A DNA stretch of 64,000 nt from Bacteroidales bacterium (GTDB lineage: Bacteria; Bacteroidota; Bacteroidia; Bacteroidales; WCHB1-69). The stretch spans positions 3,776-67,775 of the forward strand of contig JBBRGJ010000001.1 in NCBI GenBank assembly GCA_038240835.1, read 5' to 3'. Under the pieces are notes generated by a model. It was not told the DNA's origin and searched no databases. It worked only from the letters and a program-made list of their open reading frames with translations. The position numbers and the translations under genes were made by a program. Each line of letters starts with the position of its first letter. The first letter of the stretch is position 1. Shown in pieces: positions 19,002-58,620 of the stretch.

Positions 19002-19860
19002 CAATTGAACGCGGATTTTTTTGGGGAATAGAGATAGCAGAGAACGCGGATGACGCGGATTTCTTATGATGAACGCGGATTTCTTTTTTTGGATGTTTGA
19101 GGATTTTTAGATAGCAATTGAACGCGGATGACGCTGATTTCTTATGATTAACGCGGATTTTTTTTTGAATGGGCACAAGTTGATCAAAGGTTCTTCGCTA
19201 TTTTGGTGTTTGCCTGCACTCAGATAATCAGATCACTATTTCGCCACTAAGCCATTTATCTACCAGCTTGCGAGGTAGACCAAGATTACTTAAGTTTTTT
19301 TGTCACACTCATTCTCCGCGGCGAAGTGAAGTGTCTCCACCCAAGGCTCTTCTTTATTCTTAATTCTGTATTCTTACTTCTTTCTTTCTTCTCCTTCTTC
19401 TTTTCACCTTTCACGGAAAACCGTTTCACCTTCTTATTTCTTACTTCTGTATTCTTTCTTCTTTCTTCTTCGTTTCACTCCCGATAGGGTTCAGGGTTCA
19501 TGGTGCAGGGTTCAGGGTTTGGTTTTAGTTCTACTTTATTACACGTTCTTCTTGTTTATTGAATTCTTCCTTCCTCTTCTTCTTCTTCTTCATTTCACCT
19601 TTGGTCACTGAGCCTGTCGAAGTGCACTTTTCACGTTTTACCACTAAGGCATTTATCTACCAGCATGCTAGGTAGACTAAGAACACTAAGATTCATTTAT
19701 CTACCAGCCTGCTAGGTAGACTAAGATTTCTTTTCTTCTGTATTCTTTCTTCTTTTTCTTTTTGTCACACTGAGCCTGTCGAAGTGCACCTCCCACCCTT
19801 TGGTCACTGAGCCTGTCGAAGTGCACCTTTCACCTTTCACCTTTCACCCTTCCTCTTTCC
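18996..19860. repeat. modular intergenic repeat block G (865 bp, between convergent topB and the M14 gene)
   Basis: aacgcggat units 18996-19166; hairpin module at 19254-19284, 19651-19681 and 19695-19725. gtcac(ac)tgagcctgtcgaagtgcac at 19604-19627, 19764-19789 and 19803-19826. Also tcagggt heptads 19487-19517 and ttcac / cttactt runs. Confidence 0.85.
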
Positions 19861-23024: not shown

Positions 23025-23111
23025 CTGTAAATATCAATTCAATAATACTCTAAAATTGGAACCAAAACAAGCCAAAAGATGTCGGGCCCGAAGAGGGGAG
23101 GCGGGGGCGGA

Positions 23112-23207
23112 GTCTGTAAAGTCGAAAGTCTATCAAGTAAAAAGTTTGTAAAGTAAAAAGTCTATCAAGTAGAAAGTTTATAAAGTAGAAAGTCTATAAA
23201 GGAAATA
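23112..23207 (+). repeat. tandem repeat: six 16-bp units (three 32-bp units)
   Basis: gtctgtaaagtcgaaa gtctatcaagtaaaaa gtttgtaaagtaaaaa gtctatcaagtagaaa gtttataaagtagaaa gtctataaaggaaata. Confidence 0.85.
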
Positions 23208-24001
23208 GCCATCAACAGCCATTAGAGATGGCCGATCATAAAGTTAGTAGAGATTTTTTACCAATTTAAAAAAAATACCAAATCATGAAAAGCACCCTCA
23301 GAGCCACACTCTATAGACTTTAAGGACTTTACAGCCTTTCCACTTTAGGTTTTACTACCATTTGAGTGGAAGAGAGCACAAATATCAAAATTGTTATTTA
23401 AAAAATGTCATGCTGAGATTTCATCCAATAAAAATTTGGAAATAAAGGGTTGATGACAGTGAGAAAATTTACCGCTATTTGGGGCTTAGAATAAGCATTG
23501 TGGCTGTTTTAGCGAGCGTCATACTGTCACGATAGCTATCGTGATAGTCGAAGTATTAAAGAAAGAGGTTTATGAAAGCACTTTTTACAGTCCTTCGATT
23601 AACTCAGGAAGACCAGAAAAAGCAACATTCCAATTCTGTCATTGGTAGTTTATCGAAGTCGACATAGTGAGAATATGAAGAAGAATAATAACCGCAGAGC
23701 TCGCTGAGAGAAGGAAAAAAGTTGAGGACGCAGAGGCGCGAAGCGTGGAAAAGAAGAAAAGGAATACAGAATTAAGAATACAGAAGTAAGAAATCTAAGT
23801 CTACCTAGCAAGCTGGTAGATAAATGTCTTAGTGGTGTCTTTCCTTCTCTTCTCTTTTGTACCTTTTGCTACTTTTGTGGTTCAAAAAAAAAACAAAAAG
23901 CGCGAAGCGCCACCGGAAAACCCCAGCATCGCTTCGCGCCCTTTATAAACTTTACAGACTTTATAGACTTTAAGAACTTTCCACTTTAAGGACTTTATTC
24001 C
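23208..24001. repeat. modular intergenic repeat block H (rest of the 1.1-kb ORF-free region)
   Basis: Reverse-oriented modules: ctatagactttaaggactttacag 23311-23334, gaatacagaagtaag 23761-23793, hairpin module 23795-23825 and ctttataaactttacagactttatagactttaag 23941-23975. Also gtcat(g/a)ctg variants at 23407 and 23519. Confidence 0.8.
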
Positions 24002-24869: not shown

Positions 24870-26849
24870 ATGAAAAAAATATTACAATTATTGTCTATTT
24901 TTCCAATATTGTCTCTTTTCCTATTATTTAACGGTTCTGATATAATTGCTCAAACTACGAAGATTCAGCCAGTTCAATGTGGCTATTTGATGCCGGAAAT
25001 AAAAACCACAATTAAAGCTATTGCCGTCACAGGAGCTACTGGTTACAGATTTCGAGTGAGTGATGGAGATACATATTTAGAAATCATTGATAAAACTGTA
25101 AATAATTTTAAGTTAACACAACTGTTGACTGCGCCCAAATACAATACATCTTACATTATTGATGTGGCTGTTAAAACAACAGGAAGTTACGGCAGTTACG
25201 GAGAAGCATGTATTTTGACAACTCCTTCTGCTCCCCTTACAAAAATTCAAGAAAGTCAATGTGGAATAACTCTTTCGGATATAAATACCTTCGTTTATGC
25301 CGATGCAATGTGGTATATCGACATGTACCGATTTAAAATAGATGATGGTGTAAATCCGCCTCAAACTTATGAAACTACAGGACGGACATTTAAATTTCCA
25401 TTTTTCCCCTCCTTTGAATATAACACAACTTACAGTGTCTCAGTTGCGTTAAAAGCTGGTGGCATTTGGGGCTCTTATGGCCCAGTTTGTTCGGTGAAAA
25501 CTCCTTGTCAGAATTTAAAAGTATTTGCAGATACTGATGGTGATACCTTTGGAGATCTATCTAATTTTATTATTTCTTGTAATGGTGTTCCCGAAGGTTA
25601 CGTCCTCGATTCTTTAGATTGTGATGACGCAGATATGACAATTTATCCAGGTGCTCCTGAAATTTGTGGTGATGGAAAAGACAATAATTGCAATAATCAA
25701 ATTGATGAGTCAGGTTGTTCTGTTATTACCACTTTAACTGAAGATGTTTGTGGTTCAACTTTTGAGTTTTTAAATACTACTTGGATTACAGCAAATCCGG
25801 TTGAAGGAGCTGAACAATATGAATTTAAAATAACTGCAGGGGCGTATGAAGCAACTGCCTTTGATGATTTGCAAGCGACCAAAGCTCGATTCCCTCAATT
25901 TCTCGATTATCAATATAATACAACTTATGATGTTCAGGTTCGTGTTAAATTCAATGGTGTTTGGGGCGCATATTCTGTCCCTTGCTCAATTACTACTACT
26001 GATCATCCTTATACCAACATTGAATCACCTACCTGCAATTCTACATTGCCATTAATAACTACATACATTTATGCAAAAACGGTATCTGATGTTACGGCAT
26101 ATCGATTTAAAGTTAATGATGGAGTTCATTCAGAAGAGGTGTTAGAGAAAACGGTTAGAACATTTAATATTCCAATGTTAGCTAATTGGAATTATGGAGA
26201 AACTTATCAGATCTCTGTAGCCGTTAAATTTAGAGATGTTTGGTATCCATACGAAAATATTTGTCAATTATCATCTCCTACTGTTCCAACTCCAGTAGTG
26301 CAAACGAGTCAATGTAATTCTATATTAGCAAAACCTTCTACTACTATTAAATCAACTTTAATAACTGGTGCAACGGATTATAGATTTGAAATTAGCTTTG
26401 GTGATTCTACCCAAATTGTGGATAAATCTATTAATGAGTTCAAACTCACAGAGAAAGCAACTGCGCCCAGAAATGGTGTTGTATACACAATTAGAGTTGC
26501 CGCAAAAGTTTTCAATGTTTGGGGCGATTTTGGGAGTGCCTGTAGCGTTACTACTCCTGGCGCCAAAAACGAAGCTTTAACCGTTGTTGAAAATGAAAAA
26601 CACGAACTGTCTGCTATCGTTTCACCAAACCCTTCTAGTGATAAATTTACGATTTCGATTAATTCAGATATTTCAGGAAGTGTAGACGTATTGGTTACAA
26701 ATATTCTTGGTCAGAAAATTGAAAGTTTTTATCTGACGGTTTCAGATTTGTCAAAACTAACCTTTGGTGCAAACTATGAAAAAGGAATATACTTAGTTAC
26801 CATTCGCCAAGGTGCACATAGAAAAGTATATAAAATAGTCAAACAATAG
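24870..26849 (+). CDS. T9SS-secreted protein with five ~88-aa Cys-bracketed repeats and a central MopE-like Cys/Asp-rich motif
   Basis: Signal peptide. Five repeats of the pattern C..(T/A)GAT.YRF..DG...YNT.Y.V.V..K..G.WG.YG..C..TTP. Central DTDGDTFGD..DCDDAD..YPGAPEICGDGKDNNCNNQIDE. C-terminal Por sorting domain (VSPNPSSDKFTI...GIYLVTI..KIVKQ). Confidence 0.8.
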   Translation: MKKILQLLSIFPILSLFLLFNGSDIIAQTTKIQPVQCGYLMPEIKTTIKAIAVTGATGYRFRVSDGDTYLEIIDKTVNNFKLTQLLTAPKYNTSYIIDVAVKTTGSYGSYGEACILTTPSAPLTKIQESQCGITLSDINTFVYADAMWYIDMYRFKIDDGVNPPQTYETTGRTFKFPFFPSFEYNTTYSVSVALKAGGIWGSYGPVCSVKTPCQNLKVFADTDGDTFGDLSNFIISCNGVPEGYVLDSLDCDDADMTIYPGAPEICGDGKDNNCNNQIDESGCSVITTLTEDVCGSTFEFLNTTWITANPVEGAEQYEFKITAGAYEATAFDDLQATKARFPQFLDYQYNTTYDVQVRVKFNGVWGAYSVPCSITTTDHPYTNIESPTCNSTLPLITTYIYAKTVSDVTAYRFKVNDGVHSEEVLEKTVRTFNIPMLANWNYGETYQISVAVKFRDVWYPYENICQLSSPTVPTPVVQTSQCNSILAKPSTTIKSTLITGATDYRFEISFGDSTQIVDKSINEFKLTEKATAPRNGVVYTIRVAAKVFNVWGDFGSACSVTTPGAKNEALTVVENEKHELSAIVSPNPSSDKFTISINSDISGSVDVLVTNILGQKIESFYLTVSDLSKLTFGANYEKGIYLVTIRQGAHRKVYKIVKQ

Positions 26850-26898
26850 TTTAGGGCATGAAAAAGGAGGTAGATACCTCCTTTTTCATGCCCTAAAC
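26849..26898. terminator. 24-bp perfect inverted repeat between convergent genes (probable bidirectional terminator)
   Basis: gtttagggcatgaaaaaggaggta / tacctcctttttcatgccctaaac with a 2-nt centre. It starts in the last base of the stop codon of the T9SS cargo gene. Confidence 0.6.
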
Positions 26899-26932
26899 TA
26901 CATGGATTTCCTGAATAAAATCTCGAATTCCT

Positions 26933-28030
26933 CTATTTTTTTGAAATAATAGTATTGTAAATATTGGAGTATTCATGAGCAATTACTTTCCAATCATGAT
27001 TCACCATAATTTTCTTAAATGCATTTTCGGAAAGTTGTTTTAGTTTTTCATCATCGCCTATGACTGTTTTGATTTTAGAAGCTAAATCATCCGAATTTCC
27101 ACTTTCAAAATATAATACTTCTGTTTCGTCAAAAACATATACATTTTCTATGATATTACTCGCAATGATAGGGGTTTTAAGGGATGCAGTTTCAAGTAGC
27201 ATATTAGACATGCCTTCGTTTAATGATGGAAATATAAACAGTTTTGCATTGCAAATTATTTTAAACAACTCCTCTTTTTCGGTTATTAACCCTAAATAAT
27301 CAAGGTTCAGTCCGATTGATTTTTTTAAAATTAACTCCTTATAGCCTGAAATATGATCTAAAGAGCCTACAATTTTAACTTTCCCTTTATATTCAATTTT
27401 ATGTAAAGCATCTAACAAAAGATGAAGTCCTTTTAATCCAATAATTCTACTTGCCGAAAAACAGATGTAATCTTCTACACGTTTGTTTTTAAGAAGATCA
27501 GGATAGATATATACTCCATTCGGAATGTAAATAATCTCTTTTTTGCAAACAGTATTCAAATATTGAATGTGTGGTTTACAGACTGATACTGTTATGTTTG
27601 AAAATTTCAAAGCAATGTATTCGAATGCTCTAAAAAATATTTTGTCTAATTTATTCCATTTGTTGTCATTTTTCGGAATTATCCCTCTTACTGTATTAAT
27701 GACTGGATATTTTATTCTTAAAAATGGTATAATAAATCCTGCATATATATGTTGAACATGAATTACATCATAATTTGCCATAAAAAGACAATGAAACATT
27801 GATTTGATATAATACGATAGAGTGTCTAATCTTTTTATTGGAAAGGCTTTTAAGGTAATTTGATTTATTCCATGATAATTTCCACTTAGGTTTGTATGCG
27901 AAGAAACCGAATATACTGTAATGTTAAAATCGTCTTTTAATTCTAACATCATCGATTCGGTAGCTCTTGCACCTCCACCGTAACCAGGAAGACCCTTAAC
28001 TCCAATTACTGCAATTTTCTTTTTAATCAT
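26933..28030 (-). CDS. glycosyltransferase, GT4/GT1 fold with DUF1972-like N-terminus
   Basis: KIAVIGVKGLPGYGGGA N-terminus. EGMSNMLLETASLKTPIIAS (the E-x7-E region). Confidence 0.7.
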   Translation of the reverse strand: MIKKKIAVIGVKGLPGYGGGARATESMMLELKDDFNITVYSVSSHTNLSGNYHGINQITLKAFPIKRLDTLSYYIKSMFHCLFMANYDVIHVQHIYAGFIIPFLRIKYPVINTVRGIIPKNDNKWNKLDKIFFRAFEYIALKFSNITVSVCKPHIQYLNTVCKKEIIYIPNGVYIYPDLLKNKRVEDYICFSASRIIGLKGLHLLLDALHKIEYKGKVKIVGSLDHISGYKELILKKSIGLNLDYLGLITEKEELFKIICNAKLFIFPSLNEGMSNMLLETASLKTPIIASNIIENVYVFDETEVLYFESGNSDDLASKIKTVIGDDEKLKQLSENAFKKIMVNHDWKVIAHEYSNIYNTIISKK

Positions 28031-49024: not shown

Positions 49025-49345
49025 AGGATTCAGGGTGCAGGGTTTAGGGTTCAGGGTTTCAGGGTTCAAGGTTCAGGGTCAATGGTTTAAGGTTCATGGT
49101 GCAGGGTTTGGTTTTAGTTCTACTTTATTACACGTTCTTCTTATTTATTGTATTCTTTCTTTCACTTCTTGGTTTTGTCACACTGAACAAAGTGAAGTGT
49201 CTCTTCTTACTTCTTAATTCTTTCTTTCTTCTTTTCACGTTTCACTTTTCACAACTCAAAAACACAAAGTCCTCTATAAACTACTTCTTACTTCTTACTT
49301 CTGTATTCTTTCTTCTTCTCACTCGTCACTTCTTCTTTCATATTC
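49025..49345. repeat. modular intergenic repeat block L
   Basis: tcagggt-type heptads 49029-49110; a segment 49091-49160 near-identical to 19495-19570. Also gtcacactgaacaaagtgaagtgtctc 49177-49203 plus cttactt and ttcac runs. Confidence 0.85.
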
Positions 49346-49358
49346 ACATTTTAAAACT

Positions 49359-51065
49359 ATGAAACACATTTTAAAATTCTTATTCCTGTTGACGCTTGTT
49401 TTTTCAAGTGTTGTCATTATTGCGCAAGTAAATAATGTTAAAAGTACTCGTATAGAGAATATTAACGGCAAATCTTATTACATTCATACCGTTGAAAAAG
49501 GTCAAACGCTGTATGGGATTTCCAAGATATATGCCGTTTCGGTGGATGAGATTTTAGAATATAACTCCGAAGCAGCTTCTGGTTTGAAAAAAGGGATGGA
49601 TTTGAAGATTCTAACCAAACAGAATATGGGAACCCCAATCGTTCCAGAAATTAAAAATCCAGTAGTGGTTGCTCCGAAAAAATCCGACAGTGTCAAAGAT
49701 AGTATCATTCAACATGTTGTAAAACAGGGAGAAACATTGTATTCAATTTCTGCTAATTACAAAGTGTCTGTGACTGATCTAAAAAAATGGAATGCCAATT
49801 TAACCGATCAGATTTCTGTGGGTGATACTATTTTGGTTCGTTTGCTGAATAAAAAAGATCAGGTAAACAATGCTCATATTGTTGAAATTATCAACAAAGG
49901 CGTGGATGTTGAACCCAAAGCAATTCCCTTAGATACGGTTAAAAAAGAGATTACTCCCACCGTTGTATCTAAATCATTCCGTGGTTATTATGAAGTTGCG
50001 TTGATGGTTCCATTTATGCTTTCTGATATAGCAAATTCGGAATCCATTAGATCAATTAAAGATCTTGAATCTGAAAAATCTTTTGAATTTATTCAGTTTT
50101 ACGAATCCTTTCTCATTGCGTTCAAGCAATTTGAAAAATTAGGCGTAAAAGTCACATTGAGAGTGTATGATATTACGAGTGATACCAACCGATTGAATAA
50201 AGTGCTCAACTCGCTTGATTTTCAAAATGTAGACATGATCATTGGACCATTTTTTACCTCTACCTACAAAGTGGCTTCCAATTGGGCAAAAAAAAACCAA
50301 GTATATATTGTCAATCCATTTTCGCATCGTGATGATCTATTTGTGGATAATCCATTCACCATCAAATTAGTCTCTTCGGATAAAAGTCAGTCGCTTAAAA
50401 TAGCTCAATATTGCAACTCCTTGTCCTCCGACGCAAATGTGGTTGTGGTTCATAATGGAACGGCTGATGAGAAGAAATTTTTATCACTTCTAAAGCAAGC
50501 ATTTGCCACAGTTGCCAACAAAATTAGTGTGAAAGATGTTTTGTATAGTCAAAAAGGAATTGGTGGTGTAAGCGAGAAAATGGTGTCTGGTAAAATGAAT
50601 ATTGTGATCTCATTGCTTTCCAAAGAGGCGGTGGTTACTAACTTTGTTAGAAGATTGTATGAGCTAAAACGTGAGAATTTAATTCTTTTAGCACCCGATT
50701 CTTGGGAGAAATTTGACAACATTGAGACAGATTATTTTGAGTCGTTACACTTGCATCTATTTGATGGCTATTTTGTGGATTATTCGAATGAAAACTCAAT
50801 TAAATTTGTCGAAGAATTTAGAGCACAATACAATACAGAACCAGATATCAACAAATACGCTTTTCAGGGGTATGATATCTGTACTTATTTTGTGGGAGCG
50901 CTCATCAAAGATGGTTATTCCTGGACCGAAAAATTAAATGATTATCACCCAGAGCTAATCAGTACAAAAATCAAATTACATCGAATAGACGAGAATTCTG
51001 GTTGGGAAAACACTGAATTACAAATATTCAAAATTGAAAATTATAAATTTGTGTCAGCTCAATAA
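49359..51065 (+). CDS. LysM (x2) + periplasmic-binding-protein-like domain protein
   Basis: Signal peptide, two LysM motifs (HTVEKGQTLYGISKIY, HVVKQGETLYSISANY) and a type-1 PBP-like C-terminal half. Confidence 0.75.
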   Translation: MKHILKFLFLLTLVFSSVVIIAQVNNVKSTRIENINGKSYYIHTVEKGQTLYGISKIYAVSVDEILEYNSEAASGLKKGMDLKILTKQNMGTPIVPEIKNPVVVAPKKSDSVKDSIIQHVVKQGETLYSISANYKVSVTDLKKWNANLTDQISVGDTILVRLLNKKDQVNNAHIVEIINKGVDVEPKAIPLDTVKKEITPTVVSKSFRGYYEVALMVPFMLSDIANSESIRSIKDLESEKSFEFIQFYESFLIAFKQFEKLGVKVTLRVYDITSDTNRLNKVLNSLDFQNVDMIIGPFFTSTYKVASNWAKKNQVYIVNPFSHRDDLFVDNPFTIKLVSSDKSQSLKIAQYCNSLSSDANVVVVHNGTADEKKFLSLLKQAFATVANKISVKDVLYSQKGIGGVSEKMVSGKMNIVISLLSKEAVVTNFVRRLYELKRENLILLAPDSWEKFDNIETDYFESLHLHLFDGYFVDYSNENSIKFVEEFRAQYNTEPDINKYAFQGYDICTYFVGALIKDGYSWTEKLNDYHPELISTKIKLHRIDENSGWENTELQIFKIENYKFVSAQ

Positions 51066-51079
51066 TTTTTGTGTCAATT

Positions 51080-51262
51080 TAGTACAAAGAAAGAAGAGGT
51101 ATCAAAGAAAGAATGTGACGAGCTTCGCTCCGTTACTCCCGAAAAAACAGAAATCTCTGATTTCATTTTTTTTCGAGGATCCACGAAAAAATAACAATCC
51201 GCCAGTTGGCGGATTTATTTTTCGGGACCCGTTACCCCGTCACCTCTTCGTACTTCGTTATT
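51080..51262. repeat. modular intergenic repeat block M
   Basis: gtgacgagcttcgctccgttac (complement orientation of block O/P modules). The cccgaaaaaa..ttttttcgaggatccacgaa..aatccgccagttggcggatt..tttttcgggacccgttacc unit is shared with block N. Confidence 0.8.
51196..51223. terminator. hairpin aatccgcc-agtt-ggcggatt with flanking A/T runs (bidirectional terminator candidate)
   Basis: 8-bp GC-rich stem extended by cgaaaaaataac / tatttttcg. It lies between the convergent LysM and yraN genes. Confidence 0.55.
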
Positions 51263-51278
51263 TTTTCTTTAAAATCAG

Positions 51279-51641
51279 TTACATCCCAGCCTGAAAAGCA
51301 TCCTTTATAATTTTGATATCCTGTTGTTTGGAGTTGTACAACACTGAAACAATATCAAAACGAAACTCTTCCATTATGTCATACTTTTCGGCATAGTGAT
51401 TGGCTGCACGAATTAGAAAAAACTGTTTCTTTTTGGTGACAAAAGTTTCGGGCTCTCCAAAATAGTTTGTTTGACGAGTTTTTACTTCTACCAAGACAAT
51501 CATATTATCCTCCTTCGCAATGATGTCTACTTCATCGTTTCCGTATCTCCAATTGGTGTGTAAAATTTCATATCCAAGTTTCCTTAGTTCGGCTAAAGCA
51601 AGCTCTTCGCCCGCTTTTCCTAAATCGTTGTGTTCTGCCAT
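51279..51641 (-). CDS. yraN: YraN family (UPF0102) endonuclease-like protein
   Basis: GEELA..L...GY.IL..NWR....EVDIIA......VLVEVKTR pattern; 120 aa. Confidence 0.85.
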   Translation of the reverse strand: MAEHNDLGKAGEELALAELRKLGYEILHTNWRYGNDEVDIIAKEDNMIVLVEVKTRQTNYFGEPETFVTKKKQFFLIRAANHYAEKYDIMEEFRFDIVSVLYNSKQQDIKIIKDAFQAGM

Positions 51642-51644
51642 CGG

Positions 51645-52550
51645 TTAATTGTTAAAGGTTAAAGTGCTCGACTCTTTTGTGACTGAAAGGGTTACTTCGG
51701 CTCCCATTTTTAAAGCAAAATTTTGGTCAATATGTCCGGCTGGAAATCCAAAACAGACTGGAAATGAAAACTCTTTCACGGACTCATGAATTATCTCTTC
51801 GGCTGTTTTCCCAAAAGGGACTGTATTGTCGTGCATATCAGACATTCCGCCAACGATGAGACCTATTAAGTTCTTGATTTTTCCACTTCTTTTTAAAGAG
51901 AGAATCATTCGGTCGATGTGATAGAGATATTCATCTAAATCTTCCAAAAACAGTATTTTTCCATCGGTGTTAATGTCCGAAATAGATCCTTGTAAACTGT
52001 ATAATATGGATAAGTTTCCCCCAATCAAAACTCCTTTTGATTGACCAATTCTGTTCATTGGAGTATTGGAAAACGAGTAGGAGAGAGGTTTCCCGGTGAG
52101 TGCGTTCAAAAGTGTGTTCACCGATTCATTACTTGAGCCATCAACTGGGAAATTGATGGGCATGGTGCTGTGGATTGTTTTTAGTCCCAAGTGATGAAGA
52201 TGAGCATGTAAAACGGTGACATCGCTATACCCACAAATCCATTTTGGAGCTGATAACAGTGGGGTGAAATCAATAGAATCAATGATTCTAGCAGTTCCAT
52301 AACCGCCTCTAGTACAAATTATTGCTTTGACTTTGGGGTGCTTGATAAGATATTCAAAATCTTCTGTTCTTTGTTCGTCAGAACCTGCAAATTGATTTTC
52401 GGCAGCATAAATATTTGGAGGAGTAACAACATTAAATCCTTGGTTTTTAAGAAAAATAATGACAGGTTCGAGTTCGGTTTTGGTTATTTTTCGGGCTGTG
52501 GAAACAAGTCCAATCGTATCGCCAATGGATAAATATTCTGGAGTAATCAT
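51645..52550 (-). CDS. ldcA: S66 family LD-carboxypeptidase
   Basis: CTRGGYGTARI, nucleophile context GYSDVTVLH, and the C-terminal GHI region. Confidence 0.8.
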   Translation of the reverse strand: MITPEYLSIGDTIGLVSTARKITKTELEPVIIFLKNQGFNVVTPPNIYAAENQFAGSDEQRTEDFEYLIKHPKVKAIICTRGGYGTARIIDSIDFTPLLSAPKWICGYSDVTVLHAHLHHLGLKTIHSTMPINFPVDGSSNESVNTLLNALTGKPLSYSFSNTPMNRIGQSKGVLIGGNLSILYSLQGSISDINTDGKILFLEDLDEYLYHIDRMILSLKRSGKIKNLIGLIVGGMSDMHDNTVPFGKTAEEIIHESVKEFSFPVCFGFPAGHIDQNFALKMGAEVTLSVTKESSTLTFNN

Positions 52551-52639
52551 CTTTATCTATTTATTTAGATGCAAATATACATTTTATTTATCCTAAATGA
52601 ATTAATTGTAATTTAAAAAAACGAACTTAGCTAGAAGAA

Positions 52640-52925
52640 AGAGGTGCCAAAGTGACGAGTGACGAGTGACAGAGCGGAGTCTCGCTTTTCGCCGGTCTCG
52701 CTTCGCGGTCACTCGTCACCTGTCACTTCCCTCCATCGTCGCTTTCCCGAAAAAAAGAGCAGCCTAATGGCTGATCGTTTTTTTTCGAGGATCCACGAAT
52801 TTTTACAAAATCTCTCCGCCGCGGCGGATTAAAATTCGGGACGCGGTCACTCCCGAAAAAACAATCCGCCAGTATGTGGATTTATTTTTCGGGACCCGTT
52901 ACCTTCCTTCATCGTCACTTTTTCC
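52640..52925. repeat. modular intergenic repeat block N
   Basis: gtgacgagtgacgagtgac 52653-52671 paired with gtcactcgtcacctgtcac 52709-52727. 14-nt perfect palindrome tccgccgcggcgga 52815-52828. cccgaaaaa / tttttcggg hairpin units are shared with block M. Confidence 0.8.
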
Positions 52926-52992
52926 TACAAACAATGAACATTGCTTTGTTAGCAAAAAAAAACAAAATACAATATTGAAAAACAAAACACGT

Positions 52993-53000
52993 TAATTTTG
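52993..53000 (+). promoter_or_regulatory. -7 box TAATTTTG upstream of exbB
   Basis: TAnnTTTG match 29 nt before ATG 53029. Confidence 0.45.
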
Positions 53001-53028
53001 CATCATCAAATATTAAATTTAAAAGTAT

Positions 53029-53745
53029 ATGCTAAATACAATTTTGTTACAAGTCACAAAGGCAGGTGAGGCAGTGGCTGAAAATGTTTCCAATGCTCCA
53101 GTTGCAGCTCCTCAACAGTTTGAATCTTTGAATATTTGGAGTTTGACGTTAAAAGGGGGATGGATTATGATCCCATTGGCTCTTATGTCAATTCTTGCCA
53201 TCTATATTTTTGTGGAACGTTTTATTACGTTGAACAAAGCCGGAAAGGATGATCCAAATTTCATGAACAACATTCGTGATTTTATCCACAATGGCCGTTT
53301 GGATTCTGCGGTGGCTCTTTGTAAAAACAATCAAACTCCGTTGGCACGAATGATTGAAAAAGGGTTGACTCGTCTAGGGAAACCATTAAATGATATCAAT
53401 GCTGCCATCGAGAATGTAGGAAAATTAGAAGTAACACGATTGGAAAAAAACATTGCGGCTTTAGCAACCATTGCAGGTGCAGGTCCAATGCTTGGTTTTT
53501 TGGGAACAGTTACTGGGATGGTGAAAGCTTTTTACGACATGGCCAAAGCTGGGAATAATATTGATATTCAATTACTTTCGAGTGGTATTTACGAAGCAAT
53601 GGTTACCACTGTTGGTGGACTTGTAGTTGGTATTATAGCGTATATTTGTTACAATATATTGGTTGCAAGAGTTGAAAAAGTGGTCTATATCTTAGAAGCT
53701 CGAACCACTGAATTTATGGATTTATTAAATGAGCCAGTAGCTTAA
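53029..53745 (+). CDS. exbB: MotA/TolQ/ExbB proton-channel protein
   Basis: 3 TM helices and the GPMLGFLGTVTGM motif. Confidence 0.85.
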   Translation: MLNTILLQVTKAGEAVAENVSNAPVAAPQQFESLNIWSLTLKGGWIMIPLALMSILAIYIFVERFITLNKAGKDDPNFMNNIRDFIHNGRLDSAVALCKNNQTPLARMIEKGLTRLGKPLNDINAAIENVGKLEVTRLEKNIAALATIAGAGPMLGFLGTVTGMVKAFYDMAKAGNNIDIQLLSSGIYEAMVTTVGGLVVGIIAYICYNILVARVEKVVYILEARTTEFMDLLNEPVA

Positions 53746-53766
53746 TTTATTTAAAATAGGATAGTT

Positions 53767-54183
53767 ATGGCATTAAAAACCAGAAATAAGAGAAATATTG
53801 AGTTTAGTACCGCTTCTATGTCGGATTTGGTGTTTTTATTACTCATTTTTTTTATGATTACATCGACATTGGTGAGTCCAAATGCAATTAAACTTTTGTT
53901 GCCAAATAGCACCGGTCAAGTTAAATCTCCAAAGACCATGAACGTTTATGTGAGGGCTCCCGATGAATTTTATGTGGAAGAAAATCGTGTGCCTTTGGAA
54001 GAACTTTCTTTAAAGATTCAAGAAAACTTGGTTGGTCAACCTGATGATGCAACCGTTGTTTTACGTTCCGACAAAGAAGCAGCTGTTCAGTTGGTTGTAA
54101 ATGTAATTGATGCGGTGAACAAAATAAATGAACAGTACCAAAAAAAGTACAAAGTTATTTTGGCAACAAATCCACAGAAATAA
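53767..54183 (+). CDS. exbD: biopolymer transport protein ExbD/TolR
   Basis: N-terminal SMSDLVFLLLIFFMITST TM helix; 138 aa. Confidence 0.85.
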   Translation: MALKTRNKRNIEFSTASMSDLVFLLLIFFMITSTLVSPNAIKLLLPNSTGQVKSPKTMNVYVRAPDEFYVEENRVPLEELSLKIQENLVGQPDDATVVLRSDKEAAVQLVVNVIDAVNKINEQYQKKYKVILATNPQK

Positions 54184-54219
54184 CGTTAAACCTTATAGAT
54201 CAAATCAAATTAGTGCAAT

Positions 54220-54924
54220 ATGTTAAAGATAAGCAATCAACATAAGGGAATTATTGGAACCGTGGTGTTTCATTGTCTTTTATTGCTCTGTTTCTTTTTT
54301 ATGGGGTTTAAAACTCCATTACCTTTGCCCGAAGAGATTGGTACAGAGATAGATATGGGCGGTGGTGGCGGTGGTTCATCCAGTTCTGATGTAAGTACAC
54401 CTGCATCATCCAGTCCCGAAGATTATGCTACCCAAAATTCTGAAGAATCGACAGCATTGACTAATAATAAAAATAAAGTCATCAGAAAAAATGTCGATAA
54501 CAAAGTGGTAGAACCCAAAGTGGATGAACGTTTTATCTATAAAAAATCAAATAATAATGGTTCTGGCAATGGGAACGGCAATGGAAATGGTCCTGGCACT
54601 GGTCCCGGAAGTGGTCCTGGTGATGGAGGCGGAAATGGTCCCGGTCACGGTCCTGGCAATGGTCCTGGATTTTCTTTGAATGGAAGAAGTGCCAAAAGTT
54701 TGCCCGCTCCCGATTTTAGCAACATACAAGGAAAGGTAGTCGTTAGAATTAAAGTAGATCCAAATGGGAAAGTGATTGACGCAGAAGCAATTTCAAAAGG
54801 TTCAACCATTGCAAATAATAAAGTTTGGAAAAAATGTGAAGAATATGCAATGAGAGCAAAATTCAGTGCAAAATCTGATGCGCCGGATGTACAGCAAGGA
54901 ACGATTACTTATATTATTGAGTAA
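54220..54924 (+). CDS. tonB: TonB-family energy transducer with a Gly/Asn/Pro low-complexity linker
   Basis: N-terminal TM anchor, (NG)n(PG)n linker, C-terminal TonB_C-like beta region (GKVVVRIKVDPNGKVIDAE). Confidence 0.7.
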   Translation: MLKISNQHKGIIGTVVFHCLLLLCFFFMGFKTPLPLPEEIGTEIDMGGGGGGSSSSDVSTPASSSPEDYATQNSEESTALTNNKNKVIRKNVDNKVVEPKVDERFIYKKSNNNGSGNGNGNGNGPGTGPGSGPGDGGGNGPGHGPGNGPGFSLNGRSAKSLPAPDFSNIQGKVVVRIKVDPNGKVIDAEAISKGSTIANNKVWKKCEEYAMRAKFSAKSDAPDVQQGTITYIIE

Positions 54925-54950
54925 TAGTTTTGTAGATATATTTCTAAAAT

Positions 54951-54991
54951 AAAAAAATGCTCAAGTATCGAAATATTTGAGCATTTTTTTT
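54951..54991 (+). terminator. intrinsic terminator after tonB
   Basis: aaaaaaatgctcaa - 12-nt loop - ttgagcatttttttt. Confidence 0.65.
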
Positions 54992-55009
54992 ATGAAATCT
55001 TTTTAGGGG

Positions 55010-55300
55010 GAGAAGTGAACAGGTGAGTGAAGCTCGTTCTGAAAGAGGTGACGGAGTAACGGGGTAACGGGGTAACGGAGCGAAGCTCGTCTGAAGAAGT
55101 GGCCGAGTGGCGGAGTAGCCGAGTGGCGGAGTGGAGCGAAGCTCGACTGGCCTCGCAAGAGTCTCGCTTCGCGCCCGGACTCGCTTGCGCATCGTCGCTT
55201 CGCGCCCGGACTCGCTTGCGCATCGTCGCTTTGCGGTCACTCCGTTACTCCGTAGCCCCGTCACCTTCTTCACTCGTCACCCCGTTACTTTTTTCTCAAA
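55010..55300. repeat. GC-rich modular repeat block O (upstream of folC)
   Basis: ggtaacgg octads 55047-55080. gccgagtggcggagt units. About 108 bp (55096-55203) are ~94% identical to 56789-56895. A perfect 31-bp tandem duplication lies at 55164-55225, with complementary gtcactccgttac / gtcacc modules on the right arm. Confidence 0.85.
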
Positions 55301-55316
55301 GTATTATTTTTTTTTC

Positions 55317-55324
55317 TACTTTTG
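55317..55324 (+). promoter_or_regulatory. -7 box TACTTTTG upstream of folC
   Basis: TAnnTTTG match 105 nt before ATG 55429. Confidence 0.4.
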
Positions 55325-55428
55325 CAGCAAGACAAAAGTGACATTAAAAATAGGATCTTAGAAGGAAAAAAGGTTCATCTTTTTCGACAAAATATTTTTT
55401 TTAAAAAGAGTAAATCAATTGCTTAATT

Positions 55429-56703
55429 ATGAATTACAAAGAAACGTTAGAATATTTATTTAATAGTTTGCCCATGTTTCATCGGGTTGGAGCTGCAGCT
55501 TATAAGGCAAATTTGGATAATACGTATAAGTTGATGGATTTAACGGGACATCCTTACGAGAAATTTAAATCAATCCATGTTGCTGGAACTAATGGAAAGG
55601 GCTCTAGTTCTCACTTTCTTGCTTCCATCATGCAGGAGCAAGGGCTGAAAACTGGGTTGTACACATCGCCTCATTTAAAAGATTTTCGCGAAAGAATTAA
55701 AATTAATGGGGTGATGATTTCCGAAGAAGAAGTTGTTGGTTTTGTGGAGAAATACAAGTCTAATTTTGAAGAAATTCAACCCTCTTTTTTTGAAATGACT
55801 GTGGCCATGGCTTTCTCTTATTTTGCTAAAGAAAACGTAGATATTGCAATTATAGAAACGGGCTTAGGTGGTCGTTTAGATTCAACAAATGTCATTCATC
55901 CACTGCTCTCTATCATCACAAATATTGATTTTGATCATACCGCTTTGTTGGGAAATACATTGGTTGAAATTGCCGGTGAAAAAGCTGGAATTATAAAGAA
56001 AAATGTGCCAGTGGTGATTGGAGAATCTTCGGTAGAAACTGATTCTGTTTTTATACAAAAATCAATTATTGAAGATGCTCAAATTGTATTTGCTGACAAA
56101 GTAAATTTGGTGGAGGATGTGGAGATGATAAATCCTTTTTTAATGAATTTTAAATTTGGAAATTATAATCTTTCTAGTCCACTAGCTGGAAAGTATCAGC
56201 TAAAAAATTTGGTCACCGTATGTACCGCCATCGATCTGTTGAATAATTGTACTGACATTCAAATCTCTCCAAAAAACGTGGAGTTAGGAGTTCGTAATGT
56301 GATCAAAAATACACAATTTGTTGGAAGATGGCATCGATTGAATGAGAGTCCTTTAGCCATTGCTGATACAGGTCATAATCCTCATGGTTTGTCTATTGTG
56401 TTAAAACAATTGGAGGAATTGCAAGCAAAAACACTTCATTTTGTCCTGGGAATGGTCAACGATAAAGATATTGATTTGGCGTTGTCGATGATGCCAAAAA
56501 ATGCAGTTTATTATTTTTGCAAAGCAGATATTCCAAGAGGATTAAACCAAGAAATTTTGGCACAAATGGCTCAGAAGTTTGGATTAAATGGCTCGTGTTA
56601 CTCTTCTGTGAATGAAGCATATCAAGTTGCCTTAAAAAATGCAAAACCAGAAGATGTCGTCTTTGTCGGAGGAAGTACGTTTACAGTTGCTGAGGTGGTT
56701 TGA
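55429..56703 (+). CDS. folC: folylpolyglutamate synthase / dihydrofolate synthase
   Basis: HVAGTNGKGSS P-loop and Mur-ligase organisation. Confidence 0.9.
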   Translation: MNYKETLEYLFNSLPMFHRVGAAAYKANLDNTYKLMDLTGHPYEKFKSIHVAGTNGKGSSSHFLASIMQEQGLKTGLYTSPHLKDFRERIKINGVMISEEEVVGFVEKYKSNFEEIQPSFFEMTVAMAFSYFAKENVDIAIIETGLGGRLDSTNVIHPLLSIITNIDFDHTALLGNTLVEIAGEKAGIIKKNVPVVIGESSVETDSVFIQKSIIEDAQIVFADKVNLVEDVEMINPFLMNFKFGNYNLSSPLAGKYQLKNLVTVCTAIDLLNNCTDIQISPKNVELGVRNVIKNTQFVGRWHRLNESPLAIADTGHNPHGLSIVLKQLEELQAKTLHFVLGMVNDKDIDLALSMMPKNAVYYFCKADIPRGLNQEILAQMAQKFGLNGSCYSSVNEAYQVALKNAKPEDVVFVGGSTFTVAEVV

Positions 56704-57000
56704 AAGAGGTGACGAGTGACGAGTGACGAGTGACGGAGCGAAGCTCGACTGAAGAGGTGACGGGGTAACGGAGCGAAGCTTATCTGAGGAAGTGGCCGAG
56801 TTGCGGAGTAGCCGAGTGGCGGAGTGGAGCGAAGCTCGACTGGCCTCGCAAGAGTCTCGCTTCGCACCAGACTCCCTTGCGCATCGTCGCTTCGCGGTCA
56901 CTCGTCACTCGTCACCTGTCACTTTCCTCCATCGTCGCTTCGCGGTCACCCCGTTATTTCGTCACCCCGTTACCTTCTTGCTCCGTTTCTTCGAAGTCAT
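56701..57000. repeat. GC-rich modular repeat block P (downstream of folC)
   Basis: gtgacga heptads 56709-56734 are mirrored by gtcactcgtcactcgtcacc 56897-56916. It shares the ~108-bp core with block O and cgcttcgcggtcactcgtcacctgtcactt.cctccatcgtcgctt with block N. Confidence 0.85.
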
Positions 57001-57117
57001 CCTCCATTTCCCCCCTTGGAAAACAGAGTATTGAAAGGGTTTTCTCTTTTCCTTTGTTCAATAAATGTTTAACAATTTTTTTGTTATAAAAATAGTGTAA
57101 AAAACAACTATTTTTCA

Positions 57118-57125
57118 TACTTTTG
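57118..57125 (+). promoter_or_regulatory. -7 box TACTTTTG upstream of guaB
   Basis: TAnnTTTG match 20 nt before ATG 57145. Confidence 0.45.
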
Positions 57126-57144
57126 CACGATAAAGTATAAAATT

Positions 57145-58620
57145 ATGGATTTTAATTTTTCAAAAGATAAATTTGTAGGCGAAGGGCTAACCTACGATGA
57201 CGTATTATTGGTGCCAGCGTATAGCGAAGTACTGCCTCGTGAGGTAAGTTTGCGTACTAAATTTACCCGCAACATTGAATTGAATATTCCTATTGTTTCG
57301 GCGGCAATGGATACCGTTACTGAGTCAGAAATGGCAATTTCTATGGCTCAAGAGGGTGGAATTGGTGTTTTGCACAAAAATATGTCGATAGAGGCACAAG
57401 CCACCGAGGTAAAAAAAGTGAAACGTGCCGAAAATGGAATGATTATCAGTCCCATTACGATTTTAGAAAATGCCACAGCGGGAGATGCGCTTAAACTGAT
57501 GGCTGAGTACAAAATTGGTGGCATTCCGGTCGTGAACGAAAAAAACAACTTAGTAGGAATCGTGACCAATAGAGATTTGCGTTTTATTCGTGAAATGGCA
57601 AAACCCATCGCAACGATTATGACACGCAAAGTGGTGACTACTTCGGAGTTTACAACTTTTGAAAAAGCCGCCGATATTCTTCAAGAATACAAGATCGAAA
57701 AATTGCCAGTGGTGAATAAAGAGGGATTTTTAGTTGGCTTAATCACCTACAAAGATATTATAAAAATTAAAGCTCGTCCAAACGCCAACAAGGATAAAAT
57801 TGGTCGTTTGCGTGTTGCTGCTGGGGTTGGCGTTACTGCCGATACACTCAGTCGTTGCGAAGCTTTGGTGGCTGCAGGCGTAGATGCTTTGGTGATTGAT
57901 ACGGCTCATGGTCACTCCAAAGGAGTTTTGGAAATGGTTAGAAAAGTAAAAGATTTATATCCAGAAATTGAGTTGGTGGTTGGAAACATTGCAACGGCAG
58001 AAGCAGCTTTGGATCTCGTAAAAGCGGGAGCTGATGCTGTAAAAGTTGGAATTGGACCAGGATCAATATGCACTACTCGAATCATTGCAGGCATTGGCGT
58101 TCCTCAATTGGGCGCAATTTATGCAGTTTCACAAGCACTTAAAAATACAGGCGTTCCTGTAATTGCCGATGGTGGAATTCGTTACACTGGCGATATTGTA
58201 AAAGCAATTGCGGCAGGTGCCGACTGTATTATGGCAGGCTCGCTCTTCGCTGGCGTGGATGAATCTCCAGGTGAAGCAATTATTTTCGAAGGACGTAAAT
58301 ATAAAACATACCGAGGAATGGGATCCATTGATGCGATGCAAAAAGGGTCAAAAGATCGCTACTTTCAAGATGCTGAAGATGATCTTGGAAAGTTAGTTCC
58401 CGAAGGTATTGTAGGTCGCGTAGCTTATAAAGGAAGCCTTTCAGAAGTGGTTCACCAAATGACTGGTGGACTTAGAGCTGGAATGGGTTACACCGGTTCT
58501 GCAAGCATTGACCATCTGAAAAAATATGCTAAATTTGTAAAAATAACTCATGCAGGAATGGTCGAAAGTCATCCTCATGATATTACAATTACCCGTGAAG
58601 CACCAAATTATTCAAGATAA
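57145..58620 (+). CDS. guaB: IMP dehydrogenase
   Basis: CBS pair insert, catalytic [12 protein letters not shown]-terminal EAPNYS. Confidence 0.95.

Follow-up and report, generated by a model that had tools for sequence, protein, structure and literature searches.

Why should folC be enclosed by two copies of a GC-rich repeat in an AT-rich genome? The window analyzed here, the whole stretch of 64,000 nucleotides from an uncultured Bacteroidota, has a GC content of 0.358, while the two blocks that enclose folC, here called A and B, reach 0.60-0.69, confirming the impression of a first-pass annotation that the blocks stand out from an AT-rich background. That annotation proposed that the flanking direct repeats could drive excision or amplification of folC, or alternatively that they insulate or terminate a separately regulated gene. 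Our analysis leads to a different answer: at least four junk-like blocks exist, A and B among them, and they do not form a special folC cassette. We consider it probable, at roughly 0.6, that A and B are two neighbors in one family of REP/BIME- or MITE-like mosaic palindromic repeats, which are non-coding, rich in GC and restricted to this lineage.

Anatomy of the two blocks around folC

Block A lies past the terminator of the tonB-like gene, which belongs to an exbBD-tonB unit, and ahead of the TACTTTTG box of folC. Block B extends from the folC stop codon toward the -7-like box of guaB and has no T-run. The Bacteroidota -7 promoter consensus is TAnnTTTG. The features of this region are:

54951-54990, + strand: canonical terminator hairpin of the tonB-like gene, upstream of block A; inverted repeat with 18-nt arms at 94%
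55015-55294, no strand: block A, a GC-rich mosaic hairpin block with the tonB-like gene on its left and folC on its right (sequence, repeats, module map, folds, GC)
55064-55207, + strand: core copy 1, containing the 108 nt first noted
55317-55324, + strand: TACTTTTG -7-like box, downstream of block A, with the folC ATG 104 nt further on (pattern scan)
55429-56703, + strand: folC, folylpolyglutamate/dihydrofolate synthase (Pfam Mur_ligase_M and Mur_ligase_C; homologues named FolC)
56701-56980, no strand: block B, a GC-rich mosaic hairpin block beginning at the folC stop codon
56757-56899, + strand: core copy 2, partner of copy 1
57118-57125, + strand: TACTTTTG -7-like box of guaB, downstream of block B (pattern scan and alignment)

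Precise alignment shows that the direct repeat is longer than the 108 nt first noted: the two core copies, 1693 bp apart and in direct orientation, align over 144 columns at 92.4% identity (138 nt at 94.2% by blastn, 122 nt at 92% by repeat search), and their longest exact run is 63 nt (55110-55172 = 56803-56865). The segment originally picked out, 55096-55203, has its counterpart at 56789-56895; the two differ by 4 substitutions and one 1-nt indel (95.4% identity), close to the earlier count by eye of about five substitutions and one indel. A second piece common to both blocks (55221-55270 and 56930-56979) is 86% identical, and A and B have 83 12-mers in common. An nhmmer profile of the core gave strong matches in A and B only, and also picked up a third block, C, at E = 3e-4. 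Both A and B open with TGAAAGAGGTGACG, which looks like a part of the element rather than a target-site duplication.

Each block is a mosaic of short modules. In block A these are:

55015-55047: degenerate module
55048-55078: 8-mer G-arm array, GTGACGGA/GTAACGGG
55078-55089 and 55134-55145: GAGCGAAGCTCG, two copies
55099-55133: second 8-mer array, GTGGCCGA/GTGGCGGA/GTAGCCGA
55146-55164: apex
55165-73, 55196-204 and 55227-35: CGCTTCGCG words
55175-55236, + strand: 31-nt tandem duplication, CCCGGACTCGCTTGCGCATCGTCGCTTYGCG x2, spacing 31, in block A only (repeat search and alignment)
55236-55288: C-arm array, beginning GTCACTCC/GTTACTCC
55289-55294: T-run (TTTTTT)

In block B they are:

56709-56736: (GTGACGA)x3 followed by GTGACGG
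56736-47 and 56827-38: GAGCGAAGCTCG, two copies
56757-71: GTGACGGG GTAACGG
56771-82: GAGCGAAGCTTA
56792-56826: 8-mer array; the apex follows the second GAGCGAAGCTCG
56858-66, 56888-96 and 56936-44: CGCTTCGC words
56897-56922 and 56945-56975: C-arm arrays
56897-56943, + strand: B-only segment, absent in A, bounded by the direct repeat CATCGTCGCTTCGCG

The arms are built from tandem 7-8-nt words centered on GTNAC: the 5' arm has GTGACGA, GTAACGGG or GTGGCGGA, and the 3' arm has the complement words GTCACTC or GTTACTCC. The 5' arm also carries GAGCGAAGCTC words, the 3' arm carries CGCTTCGCG words, and the apex is unique. GCGAAGC/GCTTCGC mini-hairpin words are common to the blocks. GCGAAGC forms a very stable DNA mini-hairpin; it occurs 21 times against 2.9 expected, and 18 of these 21 occurrences are intergenic. 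Because any G-arm array can pair with any C-arm array, each block is predicted to fold, as single-stranded DNA or as RNA, into a long imperfect hairpin.

The complementarity of the outer arms, previously judged by eye, is borne out by alignment: in block A, 55040-55076 pairs with 55236-55272 (37 nt, 78%), and in block B, 56709-56734 is complementary to 56897-56922 over 26 nt at 92%, rising to 100% in the inner 21 nt. The hairpin of more than 200 nt that had been proposed holds as a long predicted fold, with an RNA minimum free energy of about -130 kcal/mol for A and for B, but the fold is imperfect, and only the apex and the word arrays at the outer ends are true inverted repeats. The arm pairs that match best in block B are crossed (X-Y-core-X'-Y'), not nested. 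The RNA-fold z-scores against dinucleotide shuffles are -3.75 (A) and -3.0 (B), and the DNA-fold z-scores are -2.35 and -2.53, respectively; these values are modest, and we count them against our preferred explanation. Folding energies of the + and - strands are nearly equal, which fits a palindrome at the DNA level. Strand asymmetry was set aside as a discriminator between the RNA and DNA levels, the energies of the two strands being too alike. A coding reading of the blocks was likewise rejected: the A and B ORFs share 26 residues, diverge at the 1-nt indel and have no Pfam match.

A chain of related blocks, and relatives without them

The same modules are found well beyond the folC junctions. 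Two further blocks and two solo fragments carry them:

4587-4631, + strand: solo right-arm fragment, AGTCTCGCTTCGCGC plus an ACTCATC array, in the same vocabulary as the blocks
23890-23940: solo fragment of block modules
51095-51262, no strand: block D, a related block between convergent gene ends
52637-52925, no strand: block C, a mosaic block between the divergent promoters of an S66-peptidase gene and exbB

Block C, which is placed between divergent -7 boxes, contains a GTGACGA-array hairpin (52650-52728) and three terminator-like hairpins with CCCGAAAAAA/TTTTTCGGG flanks. In block D, GTNAC/GCTTCGC words surround a terminator-like hairpin that is bidirectional (51196-51215); the block matches C in pieces of 22-44 nt at 93-100% identity, and it has words in common with A and B in inverted orientation. 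Near-identical pieces (22-138 nt at 93-100% identity) chain D to C, C to B and B to A, with 33 shared 12-mers for D-C and 33 for C-B. The C-B link is the most instructive: the B-only segment 56897-56943 matches block C at 52708-52744 with 97% identity over 37 nt, plus one extra heptamer. Because this segment is near-identical to block C, block B is, as read from its sequence, a chimera in which an A-like core is joined to a C-like arm.

The four blocks, each 170-290 nt long, all lie between genes and outside conserved terminator and promoter sequences, and together they fill every sizeable intergenic gap across 6 kb. Such 6-kb clustering is unlike random transposition, and we count it against our explanation. 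A census of 69 kb of the genome gave two full cores, four blocks and two fragments. The possibility, raised earlier, of a core spread over many loci with no preference for single genes is realized for the modules, which occur at several loci, but not for the full core, which occurs at only two in the 69 kb; the small numbers of full cores and blocks are also counted against our explanation. So is the lack of a transposase, RAYT or integrase in the window: none of these, and no recombinase, was found among its ~50 ORFs, nor was a Y1 transposase domain among these ORFs or an IS element in the window. Other intergenic gaps in the window hold further hairpin families whose arms are likewise word arrays, made of unrelated words such as CTTTGTG and TTCAGGG; this genome thus tends generally to build elements of this kind.

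Three syntenic relatives (L002, L003 and L052) have short AT-rich spacers and no blocks beside folC. Their guaB genes are 88-89% identical to that of the window, and folC is ~70% identical in L002 and L003. In these relatives folC keeps its ancestral syntenic position and the terminator of the tonB-like gene at 54951-54990 is kept, and the guaB promoter region around 57118-57125 is conserved in all relatives; the empty spacers are too diverged to define a target-site duplication or sharp element ends, a further point that we count against our explanation. A closer relative from a different sample (L001, 93% nucleotide identity) does have the start of block B, with one GTGACGA fewer: (GTGACGA)2 then GTGACGG, compared with (GTGACGA)3 then GTGACGG in the window. 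To judge from these two sequences, this difference in unit number is microsatellite-like turnover. The L001 comparison covers the start of block B, and a guaB search gave no match closer than 89%.

Thus the two-sided arrangement around folC survives in part: A and B are real GC-rich hairpin islands in direct orientation, but the arrangement is not specific to folC, since the same modules build C, D and the solo fragments, B is chimeric, and relatives do without the blocks.

Comparison with known repeat families

Searches outside the window returned no relatives of the blocks. The 29-nt apex had 0 matches in an exact scan of GTDB species genomes, among which the source genome is not included. 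The module GRGTRACGGAGCGAAGCTCG had 9 matches in GTDB genomes and 36 in JGI metagenomes (the source genome is in neither set), none a true relative: they are single chance matches in coding DNA of GC-rich Acidobacteriota, Actinomycetota and similar taxa. No match was found for block A by blastn against plasmids and phages, or for a 20-nt module pattern against viral contigs, and a full-text literature search with six block words returned only unrelated oligonucleotides.

The blocks nevertheless behave like several described repeats. REPs are species-restricted, form mosaic intergenic clusters and are thought to be selfish or to spread by gene conversion (PMC3733652, PMC3116915). Like the blocks, the REP/REPIN/BIME elements of Proteobacteria are extragenic, relatively GC-rich, imperfect palindromes, often at 3' ends, with side effects on termination and mRNA stability (PMC3733652, PMC3116915). 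The differences are considerable. A REP is a single 20-40-nt stem-loop with a GTAG or CGTC tag and a REPIN is a doublet of ~70-110 nt, whereas the blocks measure 170-290 nt and their arms are tandem arrays of 7-8-nt words instead of one conserved stem-loop. CGTC does occur inside many words (CATCGTCGCTT, TCGTCAC), and GTAG in GTAGCCGA, but neither is at a defined REP-like stem end. REP genomes hold tens to hundreds of dispersed copies, compared with four blocks in 69 kb here; REPs have a cognate RAYT, an IS200/IS605-type tyrosine transposase, of which the 64-kb window contains none; and the blocks have no sequence similarity to any described REP.

A second parallel is the BrickBuilt MITE of Porphyromonas gingivalis, which is intergenic, species-limited and modular, with tandem subunits that differ in number between copies and strains, and with inverted ends (PMC4596501). 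It resembles the blocks in being strictly intergenic, modular and from the Bacteroidota (PMC4596501). However, BrickBuilt is a 23-nt minisatellite with a defined leader and tail and 19 dispersed copies, whereas the blocks have 7-8-nt units in an array plus inverse array, and their known copies are clustered locally. The complementary outer arms correspond to the terminal inverted repeats of a MITE, except that they are arrays and not unique termini. A MITE would also be marked by a target-site duplication, by a clean empty site in relatives and by a related autonomous IS element whose ends match.

The arms alone recall the cyanobacterial STRR-type repeats and the GGGAATC/GGGGAYT arrays of Xanthomonas and Nostoc, intergenic heptamer tandems whose unit number differs among close relatives and some of which are paired and could form inverted repeats (PMC4692102). 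Both consist of head-to-tail 7-nt intergenic units in variable number, as seen between the window and L001. Heptamer arrays are usually single-stranded-sense G-rich runs with G-quadruplex potential; the arrays of the blocks, in contrast, are always accompanied by a complementary array and GCGAAGC/GCTTCGC words, giving composite hairpins. The RHEs of sponge mitochondria and the palindromic repeats of Volvox are GC-rich and invade AT-rich intergenic DNA; through nesting and recombination they become mosaics, and close relatives are free of them (PMC2800124, PMC2670323). These organelle elements come from another genetic system and are unrelated in sequence, and their likeness to the blocks is a behavioral analogy only. 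An integron gene cassette was considered and rejected. Integron cassettes are marked by attC with RYYYAAC / GTTRRRY core sites and by an IntI integrase with attI nearby; the window has no integrase and no attC core sites, the GTTAC words, read directly from the sequence, do not fit GTTRRRY, and the synteny of folC is conserved.

Origin, possible functions and meaning

How might such a family fill neighboring gaps? On our preferred reading, as a family of mosaic palindromic repeats, the blocks would occupy dispensable DNA between the end of one unit and the promoter of the next. They would grow and change by replication slippage of their words, and segments would be exchanged among nearby blocks by template switching, by gene conversion or by a putative transposase. 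Such dynamics would explain the 144-nt core of A and B, the piece of C in B and the pieces of D in C, and the direct repeat around folC would be a by-product of one family colonizing two adjacent intergenic gaps. Local spread was probably by slippage, template switching or gene conversion. Read-through transcripts might end or pause in the hairpins and the blocks may insulate their neighbors, so that they may terminate or insulate transcription incidentally; any insulating effect is probably secondary.

The strongest competitor, although we regard it as unlikely, makes that effect primary: the blocks would be selected cis-acting elements, giant terminator, insulator or 3'-end stabilizer hairpins that uncouple folC from exbBD-tonB and guaB. 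Much of the layout is compatible with this idea. A and B lie exactly between same-strand transcription units, and B starts at the stop codon of folC, which has no other terminator. T-runs end A, C and D, and a terminator scan found canonical terminator-like hairpins only inside C and D, where GC-rich hairpins followed by T-runs resemble intrinsic (Rho-independent) terminators. In A, B and C the G-rich arm precedes the C-arm when read along the + strand, which is also that of the flanking genes, and REPs are known to stabilize upstream mRNA, according to work cited in PMC3116915 and PMC3733652. This orientation, together with the T-runs, could reflect selection for a transcriptional role. The positions of A and B are thus compatible with the earlier terminator or insulator proposal. 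However, C lies between divergent promoters, where there is nothing to terminate and no 3' end. Moreover, relatives with the same gene order do without blocks, the tonB-like gene has its own conserved terminator upstream of A, B has no T-run, and the blocks, with arms of 100+ nt compared with terminator stems of 5-20 bp, are far larger and more mosaic than a terminator requires.

We think it improbable, if worth stating, that the folC blocks are the GC-rich dialect of an undescribed, genome-wide class of "word-array hairpins" in this Bacteroidota lineage: intergenic cassettes made from 7-8-nt words by templated slippage and by copying on hairpin templates, oriented with transcription, partly shared with relatives at ~70% FolC protein identity, and either maintained by a dedicated putative enzyme or selected as modular insulators.

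Decidedly less probable is that the word arrays are sites for a sequence-specific protein (nucleoid, regulatory or restriction-modification-related), with GTNAC every 7-8 bp and the hairpin incidental. GTNAC is indeed 17-fold denser in the blocks (34/kb, compared with 2/kb outside) and mildly under-represented outside them (2.0/kb vs 3.3/kb expected); the 7-8-nt periodicity of the module map is strict, and the words are conserved between blocks. But the other families in the genome use unrelated words, and the common feature is therefore the design of array plus inverse array, not GTNAC; in addition, no candidate binding protein is encoded nearby, and with a spacing of 7-8 bp neighboring sites would not face the same side of the helix.

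Genes for structured non-coding RNAs are more doubtful still. The long predicted hairpin points in this direction, the + strand having slightly the better energy and, in A and B, the larger number of G-U pairs. Against it, the two strands differ little in how well they fold, relatives lack the blocks, and the blocks are mosaic and variable in composition. No promoter-like box lies upstream of the blocks; the TACTTTTG boxes are downstream. Nor does any Rfam family apply: the whole window has no match at gathering score, folate- and purine-related riboswitches included, 50900-57200 has only three chance-level matches (E >= 0.19) in a search to E <= 1, and a scan of 4100-6100 returned nothing, the Moco riboswitch included.

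We find scarcely credible the leading idea of the first-pass annotation, a recombination cassette in which the 1.7-kb folC segment is amplified or excised as a circle. Antifolates are one example of what such a cassette might respond to. The 63-nt exact direct repeat, within the 144-nt match at 92%, is long enough for RecA-type unequal crossing-over, which makes it mechanistically possible for the segment to be duplicated or deleted. But the family flanks other units too, B is chimeric with block C, relatives have no blocks, no integrase or recombinase is encoded nearby, and deletion of folC, a housekeeping gene whose syntenic position is conserved, would probably be lethal. The sole independent contig spanning folC (L058) has the normal A-folC-B arrangement.

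An assembly or sequencing artefact can be dismissed, effectively refuted as it is for the block edges. Misassembly is a classic problem at repeats and GC-rich hairpins, and short-read contigs do break at the blocks. But three such contigs of the same strain from two other runs (L056, L057 and L058), which stop within blocks A, B and C, show 100% identity to the window across the block edges and cover the folC junctions with A's right arm and B's left arm. This independent coverage takes in block A outside its innermost 150 nt (55086-55223) and block B up to 56738. The start of block B is also present in L001, which comes from a different sample.

The finding mainly accounts for a local oddity around folC. 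It is also a warning to annotators and assemblers, as such blocks break short-read assemblies and yield spurious ORFs of 60-110 aa, and the blocks supply homology for local rearrangements around housekeeping genes. If the pattern is general, with many families of word-array hairpins, chain-like exchange between neighboring gaps and strain-level change in unit number, this lineage would be a compact natural system for the birth and spread of palindromic repeats without an obvious transposase. The lineage could then also reveal how far the Bacteroidota, whose transcription signals differ from those of model Proteobacteria, have recruited such repeats as terminators or insulators.

Anatomy of the GC-rich blocks around folC

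As the first-pass annotation had described, folC lies in an AT-rich background (window GC 35.8%) and is flanked on both sides by GC islands of 58-69% GC. The DNA derives from an uncultured bacterium of the Bacteroidota; homologues found for FolC and GuaB carry labels of Bacteroidia, Bacteroidales or Bacteroidota MAGs. The gene, the blocks (intergenic repeats with predicted hairpins) and fragments sharing the vocabulary of blocks A and B are as follows:

4587-4631: solo fragment of block vocabulary
23890-23940: solo fragment of block vocabulary
51095-51262: block D, between the convergent ends of the LysM/periplasmic-binding-protein gene and the UPF0102 gene (A/B vocabulary)
52637-52925: block C, between the divergent S66 LD-carboxypeptidase gene and exbB (A/B vocabulary)
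55015-55294: block A, on one side of folC
55429-56703: folC (Mur-ligase domains)
56701-56980: block B, on the other side of folC

The 108-nt stretch reported on either side of folC does recur, differing by 4 substitutions and a single 1-nt indel (95.4% identity), and the direct repeat exceeds that length: 55064-55207 aligns with 56757-56899 over 144 columns (92.4% identity, with an exact run of 63 nt), and an additional common piece of 50 nt is 86% identical. Block A carries a 31-nt tandem duplication (55175-55236) relative to block B; in B, directly repeated copies of CATCGTCGCTTCGCG border a 47-nt insert (56897-56943). As had been claimed, complementarity links the outer arms, over 37 nt at 78% for A and over 26 nt at 92% for B, and long hairpins are predicted for both blocks (RNA folding, ∼-130 kcal/mol, z = -3.75 for A and -3.0 for B; DNA folding, z = -2.35 and -2.53). 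The proposed hairpin of >200 nt is nevertheless imperfect: true inverted repeats are confined to the outer arrays and the apex region, while the middle layers pair only through the rough complementarity that every G-arm array has to every C-arm array. The best-matching arm pairs of block B lie in crossed order (X-Y-core-X'-Y').

The module map reveals a small vocabulary of words. Tandem words of 7-8 nt, centred on GTNAC or near variants (GTGACGA, GTGACGGA, GTAACGGG, GTGGCCGA, GTGGCGGA and GTAGCCGA, for example), form the 5' arms, each array ending with GAGCGAAGCTCG plus a short NCTGARGAR linker. Block B contains three of these super-modules; block A contains two, and a third in degenerate form. 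The apex, ACTGGCCTCGCAAGAGTCT, is unique, and past it the 3' arms run through CGCTTCGCG words into complementary arrays (GTCACTC, GTCACTCC, GTTACTCC, GTCACCCC). GCGAAGC, a classic DNA mini-hairpin of very high stability (PMC13037366), has 21 occurrences in the window where 2.9 would be expected (18 of 21 intergenic), on the + strand in left arms and the - strand in right arms. The density of GTNAC in the blocks is 17 times that in the remaining window.

The tonB-like gene has a canonical terminator at 54951-54990 that is also present in relatives; block A lies 3' of it and precedes a TACTTTTG box at 55317 that fits the Bacteroidota -7 promoter consensus, TAnnTTTG. Block B starts at the folC stop codon and stops a little short of the guaB promoter region (57067-57144), which is base-for-base conserved in relatives and holds TACTTTTG at 57118. 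Two divergent -7-like boxes flank block C (52572-79, - strand; 52993-53000, + strand), and block D encloses a bidirectional terminator-like hairpin. Thus the blocks sit in DNA that can expand without touching conserved signals. Separately, a 23-nt motif, CAAGACAAAAGTGACAYTAAAAA, is found exactly at 5891-5913 and 55328-55350 (0 expected by chance), in the leaders of the modB-like permease gene and of folC, ∼70 nt and ∼4 nt, respectively, downstream of a TACTTTTG -7-like box; it may be a leader element common to both genes.

Blocks C and D, relatives and independent contigs

Pairwise comparison of the blocks (shared 12-mers; longest pieces), which yields a chain of relatedness D-C, C-B, A-B
D-C: 33, direct; 44 nt at 93% and 22 nt at 100%
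C-B: 33, direct; 37 nt at 97% and 26 nt at 96%
A-B: 83, direct; 138 nt at 94%
D-A and D-B: 12 and 17, nearly all inverted; ∼20 nt

The insert of B that is absent from A is a C-like piece, so that B is a chimera of A-like and C-like sequence. A profile search with the A/B core matched block C at E = 3e-4 and found no match in relatives. Between 51 and 57 kb, every sizeable intergenic gap is occupied by a block, and folC is therefore merely the unit that two blocks enclose; with blocks C and D and the solo fragments using the same vocabulary, the idea that the arrangement is about folC does not hold.

The gene order S66 peptidase, exbB, exbD, tonB-like, folC, guaB, ppiC... is conserved in the syntenic relatives L002 and L003, and from exbB on in a third, L052, where a TonB-dependent receptor gene replaces the S66 peptidase gene upstream of exbB. 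FolC is ∼70% identical to that of the window in L002 and L003, and GuaB is 88-89% identical in all three. The folC-adjacent spacers of these three are 80-323 nt long, AT-rich and devoid of the GC-rich words. The much closer relative L001 (93% nucleotide identity over folC) has the start of block B, its sequence stopping 37 nt into the block, with (GTGACGA)2 in place of the (GTGACGA)3 of the window. Thus this species-level lineage gained the blocks recently, and their arrays vary in length in a microsatellite manner. L052, whose GuaB is 89% identical, has its own unrelated MITE-like repeat (∼125 nt; 535-660 and 8328-8460), one copy of which lies in the tonB-like/folC gap, where the window has block A.

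Block edges were independently confirmed by same-strain contigs from two other runs, which match 52812-55072, 53812-55085 and 55224-56738 at 100% identity; these short-read (Logan) contigs, L056, L057 and L058, end inside blocks C, A and B (52812, 55072/55085, 55224, 56738).

Other word-array hairpins in the window

Further gaps of the window contain several hairpin families with the same array-plus-inverse-array design and other words (CTTTGTG/CACAAAG, tctaccagcttgctggtaga palindromes, TTCAGGG arrays, 16-nt agtctataaag arrays); some of these words also occur in the 70%-identity relatives. Individual observations are:

4210-4300, 7985-8095, 16375-16495: second hairpin family, with CTTTGTG-type left arm, CACAAAG-type right arm and conserved apex (a)tagcataaac(c/t)tttcagct; three copies, all with one orientation and each preceding a + strand gene
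4367-4520: GC-rich (up to 56%), non-repetitive, upstream of a modA-like molybdate-binding gene; no Rfam match even at E ≤ 5, Moco riboswitch included
7925-7955, 8095-8165, 16305-16365, 19250-19285, 19650-19720, 23795-23825: repeated occurrences of the palindromic word atttatctaccagcttgctggtagactaag, many of them as tandem or inverted pairs
16565-16590, 19600-19625, 19760-19790, 19800-19826; L003 2015-2048; L002 11-23: gtcac(ac)tgagcYtgtcgaagtgcac
19002-19160: unit gaacgcggatgacgcggatttcttatgat(g/t)aacgcggattt x2, just downstream of the topoisomerase gene, within an 859-nt convergent gap packed with word modules
19480-19525 (topoisomerase-downstream gap), 49025-49110 (directly 3' of the guaA stop codon): telomere-like heptamer arrays (TTCAGGG/TTTAGGG/GTGCAGG variants)
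23100-23200, 23310-23345, 23940-24000: 16-nt-period arrays (agtctataaagtagaa...), inverse copies a few hundred nt off
26847-26900: perfect 26-nt palindrome (TAGTTTAGGGCATGAAAAAGGAGGTA / complement), starting within the final bases of the + strand gene 24870-26849 and extending into the spacer that separates it from the convergent gene 26933-28030; probably a bidirectional terminator
49025-49358; L003 1885-2186: guaA-to-LysM-gene spacer, wholly word modules
L003 1890-1950: (aaagtttataaagtc)x4 following guaA

The word gtcac(ac)tgagcYtgtcgaagtgcac is common to the window and relatives with FolC only ∼70% identical. Hence at least some intergenic words are retained, or travel, over distances at the genus level. 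In the guaA-to-LysM-gene spacer of both the window and L003, no TAnnTTTG box precedes the downstream ATG, and pyrimidine-rich CTTCTTACTTCTGTATTCTT words abut the start codon.

Nature and spread of the blocks

Modular grammar, chain-like sharing and intergenic "safe" positions are observed directly, as are absence in relatives, a unit-number change between strains and the lack of a coding or RNA-family signal. We consider it probable (about 0.6) that the blocks are mosaic palindromic repeats, selfish or neutral, that form a family restricted to this lineage and work in a REP/BIME-cluster- or MITE-like way. They resemble REP/REPIN/BIME elements in behavior (PMC3733652, PMC3116915) but differ in unit size and structure and in the lack of a RAYT within the window; the ∼50 window ORFs encode housekeeping, molybdenum-cofactor and polysaccharide-synthesis functions, with no transposase, RAYT or recombinase among them. 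The BrickBuilt MITE of Porphyromonas gingivalis shares a modular, strain-variable build (PMC4596501), although units and termini are not alike. The arms alone are similar to the heptamer arrays found between genes in Nostoc and Xanthomonas, where some arrays form inverted pairs (PMC4692102), and organelle GC-rich hairpin elements that invade AT-rich spacers are a behavioral analogue (PMC2800124, PMC2670323).

Such repeats would spread by slippage together with template switching or gene conversion between adjacent gaps, a route we prefer to random transposition because of the local relatedness chain and the chimera in B; alternatively, a trans-acting enzyme encoded elsewhere in the genome might act. 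The module pattern gave chance matches only, in GC-rich coding DNA, across 185,579 GTDB species genomes and JGI metagenomes; blastn of block A found no copy in plasmids and phages, nor did a 20-nt module pattern in viral contigs. An integron cassette was rejected (no integrase, GTTAC words unlike attC core sites, folC at its ancestral position), as was coding function (ORFs crossing A and B agree over 26 residues and diverge at the indel, with no Pfam match).

The hairpins, several followed by a T-run, would likely stop or pause read-through transcription as a side effect. That the blocks are instead selected terminators or insulators, a suggestion of the first-pass annotation, is the main rival and in our judgment unlikely, since block C lies between divergent promoters and relatives manage without blocks. 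Less likely still is that the word arrays are protein-binding arrays, of which we are very doubtful, and below that, that the blocks are ncRNA genes; an Rfam search of the blocks matched no family. Amplification or excision of folC, as first proposed, is mechanistically possible with 63 nt of perfect homology but highly improbable, as nothing was found in its support and its premise fails. We give almost no credence to an artefact.

The other word-array families and the words common to relatives leave a small chance of a larger, undescribed system in which the folC blocks would be one dialect. We assign the blocks to a variant of species-specific intergenic palindromic mosaic repeats, a family that breaks up k-mer assemblies of this organism.
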